A stretch of 14,611 bases of DNA from Candidatus Eiseniibacteriota bacterium (GTDB lineage: Bacteria; Eisenbacteria; RBG-16-71-46; CAIMUX01; VGJL01). The notes beneath the pieces are model-generated. The model saw only the letters and a program-made list of their open reading frames with translations, searched no databases and was not told the DNA's origin. The DNA lies in the NCBI GenBank assembly GCA_041946735.1, contig JBHGAY010000052.1, positions 1 to 14,611 on the forward strand, in the 5' to 3' direction. This document shows positions 6,396 through 14,611 of the stretch, piece after piece (the stretch's first letter is position 1; each line of letters opens with the position of its first letter). Both the position numbers and the translations under genes were made by a program.

Positions 6396-6971
6396 ATGAG
6401 GCTCGTAGCTATTCTCGGTCTGCTCGCACTCCTCGCCGGGACCGCCCAAGCCGCCGATCCGATCTGGATCTCCGGCCCGGCCGGCGACGGATGGCAAGCT
6501 CCGCTTCGCGAAGACGTCTGCCAATGGGGATTCCAGGACGACCTGATCGGTGGCGGATTCGCCCTCCAGGCGGGTCAACCCCTCGGCATCCGCTGCGTGG
6601 GGCCGATGACGATCACGCGCGTCGGATTCTACGTGGAGTTCATCGTCACGCCGGGACAGGTCGACATCGTGATCCTGGACGGAGAGGTCGAGGTGCAGCG
6701 GACCCAGACGACGCCCGCCGTGGGCGACAACGAGTTCGACATCCCGGACATCGCGGTTGCCGATCCCACCATCATGCTCTGCCCGGTCGGGGCGTTCGAC
6801 GGCGCGACCGGCGAGGACATCACGAGCTTCGGCAACAGCTACTACTCGACGACATGCGCGCCCACGTCTCCGTTCGAGTGGCTGAACCTGATGATCTGGG
6901 CGGTCTACACCGACGAGCCGGTGCCGGCGCCGGCGGTGAGTTGGGGGACGATCCGCGCGTTGTACCGGTAG
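6396..6971 (+). CDS. Secreted protein with C-terminal SWGTIRALYR motif, 191 aa
   Basis: AGGGAGG RBS; signal peptide MRLVAILGLLALLAGTAQA; acidic beta-rich body; Pro-rich linker then SWGTIRALYR*. Confidence 0.9.
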   Translation: MRLVAILGLLALLAGTAQAADPIWISGPAGDGWQAPLREDVCQWGFQDDLIGGGFALQAGQPLGIRCVGPMTITRVGFYVEFIVTPGQVDIVILDGEVEVQRTQTTPAVGDNEFDIPDIAVADPTIMLCPVGAFDGATGEDITSFGNSYYSTTCAPTSPFEWLNLMIWAVYTDEPVPAPAVSWGTIRALYR

Positions 6972-7061
6972 GGCGGTAGCGCCAGCCGGCCAGGCGGCCA
7001 GCAGGCCAGCCGTTCCAGAGCTCCACCCAGGCCGCACGAACGCGGCGAATGCTTGCGGCAA

Positions 7062-7090
7062 CCGCCCCGGACCAGGCAGGTCCGGGGCGG
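7062..7090. terminator. 12-bp perfect GC hairpin between convergent genes, possible terminator or 3' stabiliser
   Basis: CCGCCCCGGACC-AGGCA-GGTCCGGGGCGG; no clear U-tract. Confidence 0.4.
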
Positions 7091-7133
7091 CGTGCATCCC
7101 CGCCGGCGCCGTGCCGCGAGCGAGCGGAATCGC

Positions 7134-7704
7134 GAGCTGCGTTCCGTCGTCCGAGAGGGCCGGTCCGACATGGCGAGGAATCTGCTTCGATCGGCCGGGA
7201 AGGCTGCTGGGACCGCCGAGCAACATGTCTCAAGTAGACGGGCGCTTTGCTCCCGGGCGATCGCAACATGCTGCGATGTCCCGCTCGATCCCGTGTCGGC
7301 GAAGTGTCACGTGCTTCGATGAGCCGGCGGGAGATCCCTCGTCTCTGAGTAGCATGCTACAAGTGCCCAGGAGGAGTGGTCCCGGGCGTATGTGACCGGC
7401 TTCGAACTGCCGGATGGAGATCGCCCGGCGCATTGTTCCCTGCTCCAGTGGCCCGCGGGCAATGCTGGCGCGCGTATGTAGCAGGTCGCAGAGTCCCATC
7501 CGGAGATCGGGCGGCGGTGTGGAACGCGCGGCACCACGCCACCCGGAGATCAAGCGTCGGCGAGGAACATGCGGCGGATCGCGTTCGGCAAAGCCGGCTG
7601 CGCATCGCGACCGGTTGCGATCCCCCGGGAGATCTCCCGGCGGCTGTCTGTAGCACGTCACACGTGCTCGCCGGCAGAGCGGGCGCGGCATTGCAGCAGT
7701 TTCG
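7134..7704. repeat. Degenerate 43-bp-period tandem array of 12-bp palindromes (consensus GNNRCNNGYNNC-R), 13 units plus one decayed unit
   Basis: Motifs start at 7134, 7177, 7220, 7263, 7306, 7349, 7392, 7435, 7478, 7521, 7564, 7607, 7650 (and 7693, decayed), each exactly 43 bp apart. Confidence 0.9.
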
Positions 7705-7790
7705 GCGAGGAGCCGGAGCGTGTCGGAAGTCTGGTCGCGCGCGAGAGAGCGCGCGAAGGAGAGCGCGCGTGAGAGCGAAGGAGCGAGCAG

Positions 7791-9296
7791 TCAGTCGTCG
7801 GCGGTCGGCCGGAAGCGGCTACGCCACTCGTAGACGGTAGCTTTGGCGATCCCGGCGCGCCGGGCCACCTCCGGTAGATTCCCCCCCGATTCCCTCGTCA
7901 AGTAGTCGAAGTACCTGGCAGTCACCTGCCGGAAGGTCAGCCCCTCGAAGACCGCCCGCTCGCACGATTCCGGCACACGATGCGCCGACTCCGTCACCGC
8001 CGTCGAAGCGGCCGCAGAAACAGCCGCCGAGGCTCCCGTCGCGATCGCCTGCGGCGCCTGCGGAGGCGCTCCATTCCCGGGGCCGAAGACTGCCTCGCTC
8101 CTGCGCAAGACTTCGCGAACGTCGGCAAGGGTGATCTGGCACCGGCCGACCGCGCTCGCCGCCTCCAACACGGCTCGAAGCTCGCGCACATTGCCTTCCC
8201 ATGGAAGATCGGTCAGGTAGTCCATCGCCTCGCGCGCGATGCCTGTGATCCCGTTCTCGTCTCCTTGCCCTGCGTCTCGCAGGAAGCTTCGGATCAGAAC
8301 CGGGATGTCCTCTCGCCTCTCCCTTAGAGGTGGAATCGTGATCGCGTGCCAGGCGATCCGGTGGTAGAGGTCGCGACGAAACCGGCCTTCACGGACGAGA
8401 GCGGCCAGATCGCAGGACGTTGCACAAATCAAGCGGAAGCGGACCGGATAGCTGCGCGCGTCCCCGACGGGAACCACCTCGTGTCGGTCCAGCACGGTTA
8501 GCAGCTTCGCTTGCAGCTCGGACGGCAAGTCCGCGATCTCGTTGAGGAAAAGCGTGCCTCCGTGCGCCGATCGGATACGCCCCTGAGACGTCTCGCGGGC
8601 TCCGGTGAAAGCGCCGCGCACATGGCCGAAGAGCTCGCTCTCGATCAGGTTCGGATTGAGCGCTGCCATGTTGACGGCAACGTATGGGCGGGTCGAGTCT
8701 CCGCTCAGCGCGTGCGTCGCGAAAGCCAGCGTATCCTTCCCCGTCCCGGTCTCGCCGAGGAGGAGGATCGGACCACTCCCGGGTATCGCCTGGTAGAGAG
8801 AGACGAGGGTCGCGCACAGAGCCGGAGACGCGGATACCACTCCGATCTCGCGGAATCTGCCGAAGGTCTCTTCTCCGGTGCCCGCGCGAAGGTCGAAGAC
8901 TCTGTCCAGGCGGGCGCGGAGAATGTCCGGTTGCCGTTGCAGATCCTCCCAGGCCAGGAAGTCGGCTCGCTCGTTGGTCGCTTCCATCGCGGTCTCCTGG
9001 TCACGATGGCCCGTTATCATGAGAACGGGAACTTCGGGATATTCGCGACGGAGCCGTCGCAGGATATGGAGACCTTCGTTGTGACAGTCGCCTGGGGGGC
9101 CGATGAGTTCGGCGAGAGGCGCATGCGAGAAGTCGCGGTCGAGCAGCACGGCCCCGACAGAACGCGATCCGGGCTCTCCCAGGCGGGACTTCGCCTGAGG
9201 CCACGAGCCGACGAGATGGAAGGTGTAGCCGGCCAGGATCCTGCGGCAGAACGAATGCAGGTCTTCCCGGTCATCGATGATCAGCACTTCCCTCAT
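7791..9296 (-). CDS. Sigma-54-dependent response regulator (NtrC-family REC-AAA+-HTH), atypical, 501 aa
   Basis: REC (VLIIDD, VLLD, MITG); Walker A GETGTGKD; ESELFGHVRGAFTGA; TLFLNEI; GRFRRDLYHR; PPLRERREDI; WEGNVREL; HTH GNLPEVARRAGIAKATVYEW; GAGGTG RBS before ATG 9296. Confidence 0.95.
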   Translation of the reverse strand: MREVLIIDDREDLHSFCRRILAGYTFHLVGSWPQAKSRLGEPGSRSVGAVLLDRDFSHAPLAELIGPPGDCHNEGLHILRRLRREYPEVPVLMITGHRDQETAMEATNERADFLAWEDLQRQPDILRARLDRVFDLRAGTGEETFGRFREIGVVSASPALCATLVSLYQAIPGSGPILLLGETGTGKDTLAFATHALSGDSTRPYVAVNMAALNPNLIESELFGHVRGAFTGARETSQGRIRSAHGGTLFLNEIADLPSELQAKLLTVLDRHEVVPVGDARSYPVRFRLICATSCDLAALVREGRFRRDLYHRIAWHAITIPPLRERREDIPVLIRSFLRDAGQGDENGITGIAREAMDYLTDLPWEGNVRELRAVLEAASAVGRCQITLADVREVLRRSEAVFGPGNGAPPQAPQAIATGASAAVSAAASTAVTESAHRVPESCERAVFEGLTFRQVTARYFDYLTRESGGNLPEVARRAGIAKATVYEWRSRFRPTADD

Positions 9297-9325: not shown

Positions 9326-11602
9326 TCACTTCACCATCATGCGAATGTCGGTCCTCTCGCCTTTCGAGAAGTGCACGAGGGGTCCATACGGCTCGACCGG
9401 CGCCGAGCGCGCCGCGTCGCTGAAGTCCCCCGTGCGGACGAAGAGCGGGCGAAGAGTCGCGTCCAGCCAGTACATCCGTCCATCGAAGAGTGTGACTTGA
9501 ACGACGGCTCCATCGCTCGACGGTTGACCGATGTCGATTCGTCTGATCTCCGGTCGGGTCCCCCGCCTCAACGGGGGAAGGATGAGGTAGCCTTTCTCCC
9601 CTGCTCTCGGCAGCCCCGCCCAGCAATGGTACGGGTAGGACTGCCCGGATATGCTGGGCGGCTCGAGCATCACCAGGCAGTCGACATAGGTTTGCGGGTC
9701 CTCGGGGAAGATCGTCGTGTCGCGGGCGACCTCGTTGTTGATCCCGTACATGAGGACTTCTTGCGCTCCGTCCCCATCGAAGTCCTCGCTCGCGCGCCAA
9801 GTCAGATGGCCGCAGTGGTAGTAGCATCCCAGGGAGTCACCGGAGGCGCGGAAGAACTGGGTGGCGGTCGGATAGTAGTCGACCACCCGCGCGTGCGTGA
9901 TGAGGACTGTTTCACGTTTCTCGCCCCAGAGGACTTCGCCGAGCCATCTGCAGGACGGACTGCCGGTGCGGCTGGCGAGCGGCCCGCGCTCCGGGTAGAT
10001 CCAACGCAGATGGTGGCTCTCGATCACTCTCCCCCGTCGATCGGCGATCCAGAGCTTCGATGGGCCACGGATGGGCTGCGTCGCCAACGCCAGGCGCGGC
10101 GACAGGCGGTCACGGTCCGTGATCGGGAAGATGCGGTCCGGGGACCTGCGCCTCTGGGTCGATGGATAGTCCGGAAGGTGATTCGTAAGGATCTCCTCTC
10201 CGAGCTCCCAGGACCAGAGAACCTTCCCTTCGTCGTTCATCCCGACGACCCTAGTGCCGCCTCGGACTTCAACGGTCGTCGCGGTGGGTCGGCTGACGGA
10301 AGCGAGCGCCAGGCCCGCGGCCAGGAGAACAACCGCGATGGCCGCCACCATCGGCCGCATGCTCCAGAGCGGGGGATCCGGAATCGGGATAGGAGTTCTG
10401 GTGAGATGAATGCGGAAGAGCGTGCCGACCCCCGCAGCGCTCCAGATGCACACGGAGCCCCGGCTGGCCAAGAACTCCTTCTTGGACTCCGTCAAACCAT
10501 GGCCGCGCCCCTTCGCATGCCGGCTGTAGCCCGACTCCCATATCTTGTCCTCGTCCTCTGGGTCCATCCCGATGCCGGAGTCCTCGATCTCGACCCAGAC
10601 GCCGGGCCGAGGGGATCCGGCGGGCGCGATTCCCGGAGAGGAAAGGCGCACGGTCACTGGAACCTCGTCCACGTTCACTTCCCGCGCGCCAGCGCGGCAG
10701 GCCCTTTCCTCGGTCGCTTCGACCGCGTTGCGGATGAGGTTCTTGAAAAGATCGTGCCAAAGGGCGGCATCGGCAACCGGGACCCAGCAAGTCGAAGAGA
10801 TGCCCCCCATGTCGAGGAGGATGGGGACGCGGGCGCGGGCCACGCCGGTGCCCGCTTCTCCGCAGCGTGTCGCTTCCGGATGCGCCGCCGTCGCGGCCTC
10901 CGGACGCGCATCCCTCAGTCCCGCTCCCACTCCTAGTCCCACTTCGCGCCGAACCTCGTCTGCCGCCTCGGTGAGGACATCTCCGATCGGAGCACCGTAG
11001 CGACGGGAAAGGTCGTCGGCGAGGCCCTTCGACAAGGTCCCGAGTCTGGAAATGCCGCGCTCGAATCGGGCAAGCGCGGAGAGCGAGAGAGGTTCGGCCT
11101 GCTCGAGCGGCCTGACGATCTGGCGGAGCCGCTGGACTGACGAGATCAGGCGCAGCAACAAGACGAGGGATCCGAAGCGGGCCGCGGCAGGGCGCGCGTG
11201 GCGGAGAGCGATCTTCTGGAAATCGAGGAGGATCTGCCCGGCGTCCTCGGCGTCGGACGCGAGATAGCGGCCGCGGCGCCACTCGTTCAGCAGGCCGGCC
11301 AGCCGGGCCGTTTTCGCCGCAGTCTCGTGAGATAGATGGCTTCGGAGAAGGTCGAGGGTCGGCGCGGTGACCTGCGATCGGCTCGCAAGAGCGGGGGCCA
11401 AGGCCATCACCGCGGAGACCGGGCGAAGACAGCGGGGAGATTGGAGCGAGCGGAGAGAGATGAGCGAGCGGCGAGAGCGGGGAGAACGGGGAGAACGAGG
11501 AGAGCGAGGAGAACGAAGCCTGGTCCGGACCAGAAACCGATAGGGAGGCTTCAGATACGCCTTGCGATTGCGATCGCGCATTCTCGGGAATCCCCTCGGC
11601 AC
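9326..11602 (-). CDS. Atypical membrane histidine kinase: N-terminal DHp-like and HATPase_c domains, one TM, C-terminal FG-GAP-like ectodomain (start uncertain: 11602, 11581 or 11407)
   Basis: Putative H-box LSHE; N-box NLIRNAVEA; G1 IEDSGIGM; G2 GRGHGL; GVGTLFRIHL; TM MVAAIAVVLLAAGLALASV; DFDGDGAQEVL; ends 29 bp upstream of the bEBP gene. Confidence 0.85.
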   Translation of the reverse strand: MPRGFPRMRDRNRKAYLKPPYRFLVRTRLRSPRSPRSPRSPRSRRSLISLRSLQSPRCLRPVSAVMALAPALASRSQVTAPTLDLLRSHLSHETAAKTARLAGLLNEWRRGRYLASDAEDAGQILLDFQKIALRHARPAAARFGSLVLLLRLISSVQRLRQIVRPLEQAEPLSLSALARFERGISRLGTLSKGLADDLSRRYGAPIGDVLTEAADEVRREVGLGVGAGLRDARPEAATAAHPEATRCGEAGTGVARARVPILLDMGGISSTCWVPVADAALWHDLFKNLIRNAVEATEERACRAGAREVNVDEVPVTVRLSSPGIAPAGSPRPGVWVEIEDSGIGMDPEDEDKIWESGYSRHAKGRGHGLTESKKEFLASRGSVCIWSAAGVGTLFRIHLTRTPIPIPDPPLWSMRPMVAAIAVVLLAAGLALASVSRPTATTVEVRGGTRVVGMNDEGKVLWSWELGEEILTNHLPDYPSTQRRRSPDRIFPITDRDRLSPRLALATQPIRGPSKLWIADRRGRVIESHHLRWIYPERGPLASRTGSPSCRWLGEVLWGEKRETVLITHARVVDYYPTATQFFRASGDSLGCYYHCGHLTWRASEDFDGDGAQEVLMYGINNEVARDTTIFPEDPQTYVDCLVMLEPPSISGQSYPYHCWAGLPRAGEKGYLILPPLRRGTRPEIRRIDIGQPSSDGAVVQVTLFDGRMYWLDATLRPLFVRTGDFSDAARSAPVEPYGPLVHFSKGERTDIRMMVK
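11443..11516. repeat. Purine-rich 9-bp degenerate tandem repeat (GRGGAGARC), reads (SPR)n in the kinase frame
   Basis: ggcgagagc ggggagaac ggggagaac gaggagagc gaggagaac plus decayed flanking units. Confidence 0.75.
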
Positions 11603-11827
11603 TCGCGCGCTTCTGCTCCCTCGTCACCACCCCGGTAGACGCGCGGACCGATCGTAACGGACGGGCTCCAGCAGGTCAATTCGGCACCGGTGCCGGTGTC
11701 GCAGCGATACCGGAGTTGTGTGGGCGTCGGCATCGGCGTGGCGACCGGCGTCGCGCGATGCTGCTCGCGGACAGCAGGCATCTGTCTCGAGGCGAAGTGG
11801 TCGGCATCTCGAGCGATCGAGCGATCA

Positions 11828-11907
11828 GATTCCGGACCCGCGGTATGGATTCCGGACGAGATGGGCCGAATTTCGGACGGGATCTCGGACCTGGGCCGAC
11901 TACGGAA
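11828..11907. promoter_or_regulatory. Clustered direct repeats (GATTCCGGAC x2, AATTTCGGAC, GATCTCGGAC), candidate enhancer (UAS) sites
   Basis: CGGAC ends at 11837, 11857, 11878, 11890 (20-21 bp phasing for the first three); near-palindrome GGCCGAATTTCGGAC; lies in the divergent region next to a bEBP operon. Confidence 0.45.
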
Positions 11908-12417
11908 GCAGTGCGGAGAGCATCCGGGGGTCCATCCGCTGAGCAGCATGCGGCCGACTGACCGGACGGGGTAGCGGAGCCGAGAGACGACTCGGGTTGA
12001 GTGTTGTCATTCCGAGGAAGCCTGGCATGCCGCGATCGTTGGCGACGAGTAACCGACCTGATGGCGGGCGTACTGATCGAAGAGGCCGCCTCCGAAGACG
12101 CCTTGGGCCCACGGGCCGTTCCGTTGGATACATGACCTACTCCGCGAGGCGGCCCGATGATCTCCGCAGGGCTGCACGCACGCATCCGCCGCCAATTATT
12201 AGATCGAAGGCGCGATTCGAGAGTCGCACTCCGAATTCCCGACTCGTCGGGTGTGGTATCCAGACGGGCCCAGCGGCGGAAGACGACCGCAGGGTCGAAC
12301 GAGGTGACCTCACATCTCGCATCTTTCGCGTTGGACGAGCGCTCGCCTCGGACATCCTCAGAATCGGCGCGGACGCTTGCCAAACTGAACACTCCGTCGC
12401 CCCCGTGTCTACTCCGA

Positions 12418-12433
12418 TGGCATGGGTCCTGCT
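12418..12433 (+). promoter_or_regulatory. Sigma-54 (-24/-12) promoter candidate for the 12514 gene
   Basis: TGGCATGGGTCCTGCT: GG-N10-GC spacing, close to TGGCAC-N5-TTGCW. Confidence 0.6.
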
Positions 12434-12513
12434 TGCCCCTTGGTGGCTGTTGGCTGCTCGCGTTTCGTTGACCTTTCGCACAGGCAGCGGACTCAACCGG
12501 AGGTGTATCACTC

Positions 12514-13248
12514 ATGCGCTCAGCTCTCGTCCTAGTTCTCGTCTTCGTGTTCTTCACCGGCTGCGCAACAACCAAGCCACCTCAGGTCTACACTCCACAG
12601 TTCGCGTTCTCAGCTCCTAACACTGCTGGCCCCGGTTCCGCCGGCGTCACCCTGGCCGTCGTCAATGCGCAATACGCGACGGACGCAGACTGGACGTCCG
12701 AGGCACCATTCTCCACCTTCGCCAGCACAATGAGCTCCGACTTTCAGGCGCTTCTCAATGCTCGTGGCTTCACTGTGCGGGGGCCCTTCCGGACAGTCGA
12801 CGAGATGACTTTCCCCGACAAGAAGGGAAGCGATCTCGTTCTCACTCCCACCCTCGAACTGGCCTTTGATCCCGTTCCCGGCTCGGCACGGCTCCGTGAC
12901 ACGACAGGGTTGTTGGCTGCTGCGTTGGCTGGCCAGAAAACCTACACCGCGGAAGTCGACTACACAGTGGGCGGACGGGTCACTTTGGCCGTGAGCGAAC
13001 CCCTCTCGGCGGAGCGCATGTGGTTCAAGAGTCTCCCGGTCGAGACCACAACAGTTCACCTGACGTACCGAGCGACCGGTGCTGGCATGGCCGACATCAA
13101 CCTAATGGAGAGCCGGGAACTTTGTGAAGCGCTCTCATCTACTTATGCCAGCATCCTCGATACCGCATGGAAGTACCTAGATCCAGACGAGATGGCGATC
13201 GCGAAGAAGCAGAGCGCAGAGATTCGCGCGAAGAAGGTATACGACTGA
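12514..13248 (+). CDS. Lipoprotein, HpaA/neuraminyllactose-binding hemagglutinin (NLBH)-like, 244 aa
   Basis: GGAGGT RBS; lipobox FTGC; FQALLNARGFTV..DEMTFPDKKG, GRVTLAVSEPLSAE and the C-terminal ALSSTYASILD..KYLD..KKQSAEIRAKK follow the HpaA pattern as I recall it. Confidence 0.8.
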   Translation: MRSALVLVLVFVFFTGCATTKPPQVYTPQFAFSAPNTAGPGSAGVTLAVVNAQYATDADWTSEAPFSTFASTMSSDFQALLNARGFTVRGPFRTVDEMTFPDKKGSDLVLTPTLELAFDPVPGSARLRDTTGLLAAALAGQKTYTAEVDYTVGGRVTLAVSEPLSAERMWFKSLPVETTTVHLTYRATGAGMADINLMESRELCEALSSTYASILDTAWKYLDPDEMAIAKKQSAEIRAKKVYD

Positions 13249-13324
13249 AACAGCGCGCCATGGAGCATCCACCCACTTGCGTAGCCCGCCCGCTTCGTCC
13301 GAGAGATTTGCCTGTCTCGGCGCT

Positions 13325-13340
13325 CGGCACATCTCCTGCT
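13325..13340 (+). promoter_or_regulatory. Second sigma-54 promoter candidate, for the 13405 gene
   Basis: CGGCACATCTCCTGCT: GG-N10-GC, same TCCTGCT -12 element as the 12418 site. Confidence 0.5.
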
Positions 13341-13404
13341 CTGCGCCGTAGAGGGAGGAACGTCCTCCGCTCATGCATCCCCTACCGAGTCAACAGAGGT
13401 GATC

Positions 13405-13919
13405 ATGTTGCCCAGGACCGCACGCCCCGCTTCGCTTGTCGCTTTCGCGCTTGTCTTATTCTGCTTCTTCCTGCCCTTCACAAGGCTCTCATGTCAGGGG
13501 CAACAAATCGCGACCATGACAGGCGTACAGCTAGCGATGGGTCGCACGATCCAAGATCAGACCGTCAGAGGAGAGATCGCTGCTGTGATCGCCGCGGCTG
13601 CAGCGTTGGGCGGTCTCCTCGCTTCTGTGAGCCGGCCGATCCGGCGTCCGCTCGAGAGGTTGATCGCGAGCGCAGTCGGGGCGCTTTCTCTCCTGTTCCT
13701 CAAAGCTCGTCTCGACAACCAAGTCCTGTCTAGGGGAGAAGGCGTACTAACCATCCACTATCTCTTCCCATACTGGCTGGCCTTTTGCCTCTTTGCGTCG
13801 GTGGGCGTCATGAACTGGCTCGCGCTCCGCTCCTCACCGCGAGCCGCGGCGGAAGACCCCCAAGCCGCTCCCATGAGAGAGGAGACTTCTCGTCGGACGG
13901 ACATGGGAGGCAGCTCACA

Positions 13920-13923
<4 letters not shown>
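13405..13923 (+). CDS. Uncharacterised integral membrane protein (about 4 TM), 172 aa
   Basis: GAGGTG RBS before ATG 13405; LFCFFLPFxxLSC..TGxQLxxG N-terminus; four hydrophobic segments. Confidence 0.8.

Positions 13924-14611
<688 letters not shown>

Follow-up and report, generated by a model that had tools for sequence, protein, structure and literature searches.

In the centromere of the F plasmid, sopC, a 43-bp direct repeat occurs 12 times, and SopB binds a 16-bp inverted repeat within each copy; its authors discussed this spacing as almost exactly four helical turns, so that all dimers would lie on one face of the DNA (PMC3177203). The same source describes type Ia centromeres as direct tandem repeats of approximately 43 bp in 3-17 copies and Sop-type centromeres as found only on enterobacterial plasmids (PMC3177203). 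Tandem palindromic units are also found on bacterial chromosomes. In E. coli and other Proteobacteria, REP elements form BIME-2 clusters, which are intergenic tandem clusters of short palindromic units at many loci, with copies that are alike within a locus and a linker and sequence that vary between loci, and they bind proteins such as gyrase, IHF, and Pol I (PMC3333891; PMC3733652).

The DNA analyzed here is a stretch of 14,611 nucleotides from a Candidatus Eiseniibacteriota bacterium, referred to as the window; contigs of the same genome are numbered with the prefix C. An intergenic gap of the window holds 13 direct units of exactly 43 bp, which is the repeat organization described for sopC. 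An initial annotation had suggested that dimer-binding sites with this spacing would share one face of the DNA, and the 12 x 43-bp, four-turn arrangement of sopC is an exact precedent (PMC3177203). The features discussed below are collected in Table 1.

Table 1. Position and description of the window array, its flanks, and related arrays. Positions refer to the window unless a contig is named.
Feature	Position	Strand	Description
Tandem array, non-coding	7134..7704	no strand	13 units of exactly 43 bp each; register, column counts, and shuffle test
Twelve well-matching units	7177..7692	+	Together with sister-array units, source of the profile and of model R1; nhmmer
Block A example	7349..7360	no strand	Perfect palindrome GTAGCATGCTAC; unit columns 1-12, skeleton G1..C5..G8..C12
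Block B example	7625..7640	no strand	Perfect 16-bp palindrome CCGGGAGATCTCCCGG; unit columns 19-37, skeleton CC....G.....C...CG
Left neighbor gene	6396..6971	+	191 aa, signal-peptide-like N terminus, GC3 0.84; 3' end toward the array
GC-rich hairpin	7062..7090	+	12-bp stem, 5-nt loop; -33.5 kcal/mol, z -2.5
Right neighbor gene	7791..9296	-	Sigma-54-dependent response regulator: receiver, AAA+, HTH; 3' end toward the array
Sister array	C46:4257-4772		~12 units, 43-bp period, same two blocks
43-bp loci (n = 8)	C48 (window), C46, C6, C43, C55, C56, C29, C31		
43-bp arrays split across contig ends (n = 2)	C7-end/C32-start; C21-end/C19-start		Pairing inferred from orientation
42-bp loci (n = 6)	C11, C14-end/C4-end, C16, C5, C7:17964, C12:107664		Contig-end pairing inferred from orientation

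The 43-bp periodicity of the window array is real. The initial annotation had listed thirteen 12-mers at 43-bp steps and proposed comparing autocorrelation at that lag with shuffled sequence. Cutting the DNA every 43 bases from 7134 returned exactly the listed set, including its one perfect palindrome (GTAGCATGCTAC, 7349-7360). Identity at lag 43 was 0.452 compared with 0.278 +/- 0.019 in dinucleotide-preserving shuffles (z 8.9), and none of 2000 shuffles attained this value, even when the best of lags 10-199 was taken for each. Lags 86, 129, and 172 were equally high (0.469, 0.474, and 0.468), so the likeness between units does not decay over distance. A stronger 86-bp super-period, absent from the initial annotation, is also present. 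Tandem Repeats Finder gave no entry within 7013-7735, in agreement with the earlier remark that the units are too diverged to show as tandem repeats. A leave-one-out register test placed 12 of the 13 units at offset 0. Unit 0 (7134-7176) is degenerate and fits the remaining units poorly, and from 7693 on only part of a 14th unit is present. Model R1, which spans three units, scored 65-76 bits on the plus strand and 26-42 bits on the minus strand of the array; the unit therefore has a direction, and the repeats are direct. The array is non-coding and occupies a convergent gap, with the plus-strand gene ending at 6971 and the minus-strand sigma-54 regulator gene ending at 7791.

Each unit contains two conserved blocks. 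Block A returns every 43 bp from 7134, and counts over the 13 window units agree with the column frequencies given before: G1, G8, and C12 are present in all 13 units and C5 in 11, a pyrimidine occupies column 9 throughout (C in eight units, T in five), and column 13 is always a purine (A in six, G in seven). The second block, B, was absent from the initial annotation and is marked by C19, C20, G25, C31, C35, and G36; GGAGATC-type cores are found in units 4, 6, 8, 9, and 11 of the window array. Both blocks are partly palindromic, with centers near columns 6.5 and 28, which is a distance of 21.5 bp.

A profile built from the window units alone matched one further place in the genome, the sister array on C46. 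This array lies in a divergent gap between neighbors unrelated to those of the window array, and the two loci have no common flanks and no conserved element ends. Its units hold register (11 of 11 at offset 0), and a recent tandem duplication of two units (86 bp) is visible in four near-identical units whose ends follow an 86-bp alternation. Conservation per column was correlated between the window and sister arrays (r 0.72, permutation p < 1e-4), and none of 42 rotations of the column profile reached this value (maximum 0.30). The correlation was 0.745 among the 23 columns with a G/C consensus in both arrays, so that GC-biased mutation is not the explanation. Three columns of the window array are invariant, whereas a uniform-rate simulation gave an expectation of 0.05. 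In the window and sister arrays, pairwise identity has otherwise fallen to 45% and 60%, yet the same approximately ten positions are kept in both.

For dyad symmetry and covariation, we aligned 23 units of these two arrays. In block A, columns 1 and 12 form G-C or C-G pairs in all 23 units and columns 5 and 8 in 21; in block B, columns 20 and 36 are complementary in 21 units and columns 25 and 31 in 20. Sixty percent of mirror-position cells were complementary in the dyad register, compared with 36-46% when the partner was slid by 1-3 columns. No covariation was detected within units: right halves dealt among units paired at 61.3%, and 420 of 500 such shuffles attained the observed pairing. 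Because shuffling the right halves leaves pairing unchanged, each half follows the consensus without mutual compensation. Single units showed no folding advantage over shuffles (z -1.1, -0.3, and -1.5), and the whole array folded only slightly better (z -2.1 and -2.3). These data point to a constraint on duplex DNA, in the form of consensus half-sites, rather than on a hairpin or an RNA. The earlier proposal of a constraint at fixed positions of double-stranded DNA is upheld in that the kept columns agree between the sister arrays and the halves do not covary.

Comparable arrays elsewhere had been named as a test of the annotated array, and within this genome such arrays are present. We scanned the 4.89-Mb genome for autocorrelation and period without reference to sequence; the window array itself is too diverged for this genome-wide detector. 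Among periods of 36-50 bp that are not multiples of 3 and extend over at least 4.5 units, 43 bp accounted for 8 of 10 matches. A period of 42 bp gave 18 matches, compared with 5, 6, and 4 for 39, 45, and 48 bp, and 10 of the 16 period-42 matches checked were free of cover by a coding-like ORF. Three of these 10 (C12:129096, C20, and C45) were left out of the 42-bp loci because their units show no 42-bp repeat. Together with the window array, the loci outside coding sequence whose units measure 42 or 43 bp number at least 16 (Table 1), and the non-coding periodic DNA of the genome is dominated by one unit length, 42 or 43 bp. Arrays of this class fragment metagenome assemblies, with at least seven contig ends of this one falling inside them. 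The only long non-coding periodic locus of the genome outside the 42/43-bp class is a CRISPR at the end of a contig (C17:76723-78655), with a 73-74-bp period and a repeat of approximately 36-37 nt. Five tandem 21-bp units, half of 42, are located at C20:65354-65480 and carry the word CGCGTCAC, which is also present in the C11/C14/C4 family.

By sequence, the arrays divide into several families with short words in common; among these, TGTTCCC, GGAACAT, and GTTCCCG are enriched 11-23 fold over the genome and recur in 6-7 arrays, with both periods represented. No dispersed single units were detected, with unit profiles matching two arrays only, and 10-mers shared between arrays were at background level outside them. 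Dyad symmetry of the whole-unit consensus reached 0.60-0.67 in some arrays only; in most others it was 0.48-0.57, approximately chance for the best of 43 centers. The initial annotation had taken an indel-free period to imply selection on spacing. The window register is indeed clean, and all 12 units of the C6 array are also at offset 0, but the leave-one-out test revealed register drift of 1-5 bp in C16, C5, C7, C56, and C29, arrays of a divergence similar to that of the window array. Because indels do occur in the class, the clean register of the window array is weaker evidence for selection on spacing than the initial annotation assumed and could be luck. The conserved columns are the stronger argument for constraint.

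The same test, extended to relatives, had a different outcome: no comparable array was found in 250 genomes searched by model or in 2.0 Mb scanned directly. BLAST of the window array against 40 relatives gave short chance-level matches only (best E about 1e-3). Model R1 produced weak matches (18-24 bits) in 14 of 100 relatives, and none of the 15 loci fetched from these was 43-bp periodic; in 150 genomes of the phylum, it produced no match at E <= 1e-4. The C6 array, used as a BLAST query against 100 relatives, was found in this genome only, and blastn of the sister array against plasmid and phage collections gave no match. Gene context gave no array either: none accompanies the paralogues of the left neighbor or its homologues at 10 loci in relatives, and none was present at seven loci of five family relatives that carry orthologues of the genes beside two other arrays, where synteny is not kept. 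The AurF-like neighbor of the sister array has no orthologue in the five family relatives. A metagenome search with the sigma-54 regulator returned 24 loci that were distant (28-51% over parts), and none was 43-bp periodic. The 2.0 Mb comprised 1.2 Mb of G004 and 0.8 Mb of G005, both of them genomes from the family of this bacterium, and contained no 42-, 43-, 84-, or 86-bp array and, with the same detectors, no other array with a period that is not a multiple of 3. At the density of the present genome, the expectation for this DNA was approximately 3.3 arrays if those of 43 bp alone are counted and approximately 6.5 if non-coding 42-bp arrays are added, and the Poisson probability of finding none is approximately 0.04 to 0.002. 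Because the arrays were not found in relatives, any function would be dispensable at the family level. A near-identical strain occurs in three other studies, and its contigs match the window array, in whole or in part, with no difference or gap; in X2, the only differences are at 7742, 7805, and 7968; divergence is so low that this identity shows only that the array is no assembly artifact. We found no description of such chromosomal arrays in the literature searched, which left out most subscription journals, and none of the listed papers on Eisenbacteria concerned repeats, as judged by titles and the openings of abstracts. The window array is probably an old, diverged member of a family of intergenic tandem arrays found only in the genome of this species.

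The left neighbor protein matched no Pfam family, and the hairpin at 7062-7090 is probably the terminator of its gene and lies outside the repeat. The right neighbor matched Sigma54_activat at 1.2e-54, with 9296 as its inferred start. A short GC-rich GAGAG/CGCGCG repeat with a 12-14-bp period, approximately three copies, and a weak inverted repeat lies at 7736-7777, past the array and before the stop codon that ends this regulator gene. Farther along the window, 11600-14611 has a G+C content of 0.59-0.64 compared with 0.66-0.72 elsewhere, contains ORFs without a Pfam family, and is possibly acquired DNA.

Neighbors of the other arrays are unrelated to one another: they include a prepilin peptidase, proteases, a short-chain dehydrogenase, a metallo-beta-lactamase-fold protein, an O-methyltransferase, a phosphoesterase, a Ser/Thr kinase, an alanine racemase, and a GNAT acetyltransferase. 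No gene family common to the array neighborhoods was found by BLASTP or Pfam, and no shared DNA-binding gene that would be a candidate for the binding protein. At the 11 loci with both flanking genes known, three gaps are convergent, three divergent, and five tandem; since this is as expected by chance, passive insertion fits as well as function. Three further observations concern particular neighbors. On C43, a C-terminal fragment of an IS256/Mutator-family transposase (L072 110-538) directly abuts the 43-bp array at the contig start. An array lies just past the 3' end of the sigma-54 response-regulator gene at C4:134338-135840, as in the window at 7791-9296, and these two arrays belong to different sequence families. 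Genes for large secreted proteins with a C-terminal sorting domain of the FlgD_ig type adjoin 7 of 18 array ends or loci in a post hoc count (C6:46877, C43:867, C55:9948, C7:129908, C11:45064, C5:115174, and C12:108045); they comprise C25, M1, and M36 peptidases and a beta-helix protein, and five of the seven have the 3' end toward the array. With at least 150 FlgD_ig matches in the genome, an adjacency of roughly 10% is expected.

The reading that we favor, tentatively and with somewhat less than even confidence, is that the arrays are helically phased docking arrays for a DNA-binding protein. Arrays grow by tandem duplication, with 86-bp steps in the sister array, and the kept positions of the unit would be where a DNA-binding protein, dimeric or of higher order, makes its contacts. 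Because the sites recur every four turns (42/43 bp), the protein would be placed on one face of the DNA and could form a regular nucleoprotein stack, as has been proposed for SopB bound to sopC. Such a stack may serve as an architectural or topological element of the chromosome and would be neither a centromere nor the operator of a single gene. If the arrays are docking stacks, the chromosome uses the phased-array design of the F-plasmid centromere at many sites, and the 42/43-bp unit is a readable signature with which the protein could be found. A more far-reaching version, which we think unlikely, is that phased palindrome arrays with a four-turn unit (41-43 bp) represent a widespread class of bacterial chromosomal element yet to be described, with selection acting on geometry and a sparse skeleton of contacts instead of sequence, and that they form nucleoprotein stacks such as topological barriers or sites for the loading or wrapping of gyrase, condensin, or nucleoid proteins. 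Such stacks would follow a design that is not known outside plasmid centromeres such as sopC.

The main competitor is a selfish or neutral minisatellite family, in which one ancestral unit of approximately 42-43 bp spread to intergenic sites of the lineage. Slippage or unequal exchange would then preserve unit length by itself, decay would follow, and the kept positions would serve only amplification or reflect chance. Several properties of the class are what such a family would produce: the recent 86-bp duplications in the sister array, arrays located at contig ends in at least seven cases (as is usual for near-identical repeats of recent origin), random gap orientation, register drift with mixed 42/43 periods in several arrays, presence in this species only among those searched, and one array that abuts an IS256-type transposase fragment. 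Harder to accommodate are the same positions kept in two otherwise decayed arrays (45% and 60%), which holds for the G/C columns alone, and the lack of conserved element ends or common flanks at the sister loci. Dispersed single units are also missing, as is a RAYT transposase: PF01797 (RAYT/Y1 transposase) had no match in this 94.8% complete genome, in a search whose control matched 6 of 14 known genomes. On balance, we consider a minisatellite family rather unlikely; if correct, it would mean that repeats of fixed unit length, without a known transposase, had expanded in a burst within this lineage.

It is very unlikely that the array is transcribed and cut into RNAs of approximately 43 nt, either as type III antitoxin repeats or as a protein-sponge RNA. 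Type III antitoxin arrays have a similar tandem format of short units, the unit shows some strand asymmetry, and the slight excess in whole-array folding (z -2.1 and -2.3) is in the same direction. Otherwise, the processed non-coding RNA that the initial annotation offered as its alternative found no support: a consensus scan of 6700-8000 returned 0 promoters and 0 terminators, Rfam had no match at E <= 1 in 6800-8000, no toxin-like gene lies downstream, the units neither covary nor fold better than shuffles, and the gaps are convergent, divergent, or tandem with no strand rule. Type III toxin-antitoxin loci are organized as promoter, repeat array, terminator, and endoribonuclease toxin gene on one strand; with no promoter-like site and no gene downstream on either strand within the gap, this assignment was rejected.

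The centromere-like reading in the initial annotation, a plasmid-type, sopC-like partition site bound by a ParB/SopB-type protein, is highly improbable, and we reject it. The architecture is identical, with approximately 12-13 direct 43-bp repeats that each have an inverted repeat (PMC3177203), but there are no par genes nearby and the loci number at least 16, in several sequence families. Neither ParA nor ParB was found among the 24 window ORFs scanned or beside any array examined; ParB_N is present in the genome only at C56:66877, 35 kb from the C56 array, and at C28:15832. Neighbors are ordinary chromosomal genes for housekeeping and secreted proteins, no plasmid-collection record shows similarity, and the sopC inverted repeat given in that source is missing from the units. 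A bank of enhancer-like sites for the adjacent sigma-54 activator is the least probable explanation of all: the window array and the C4-end array do each closely follow a sigma-54 response-regulator gene at its 3' end, but both genes flanking the window array point toward it, which leaves it nothing to activate, such a neighbor occurs at only 2 of 18 array ends in a post hoc observation, and the two arrays are from different sequence families.

Two other known repeat systems were considered for the window array and rejected. Iteron-type replication origins consist of direct repeats adjoining a rep initiator gene, and no Rep family was found among the window ORFs. A CRISPR, in which unique spacers of similar length separate near-identical repeats, is excluded because repetition extends over the full 43 bp and conserved columns run through all of it.

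The window array has the geometry of sopC and differs from it in several respects. The 16-bp SopB inverted repeat is missing, and each unit carries two conserved blocks where sopC has one; no sopAB or parAB genes adjoin the array; and there are many loci with housekeeping or secreted-protein neighbors rather than one array per plasmid. Since sequence, gene context, copy number, and host range all differ, the window array is not a member of the sopC family. The BrickBuilt repeat of Porphyromonas gingivalis is likewise a minisatellite in bacterial non-coding DNA, but it is described as sitting in a MITE with inverted-repeat ends (PMC4596501), whereas the two sister loci have no common flanks. 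REP/BIME-2 elements share the organization into intergenic tandem clusters at multiple loci. Their unit is an imperfect palindrome of 20-40 nt that forms a hairpin and bears a GTAG (or CGTC) tag. They differ from the present arrays in alternating REP and iREP, whereas the repeats here are direct; GTAG heads only 3 of the 13 window units; the palindromes have a center of 0-2 bases and give no hairpin signal; and this genome has neither a RAYT gene nor dispersed single copies. The multi-locus chromosomal pattern of the arrays resembles BIME-2 clusters more than it does sopC.
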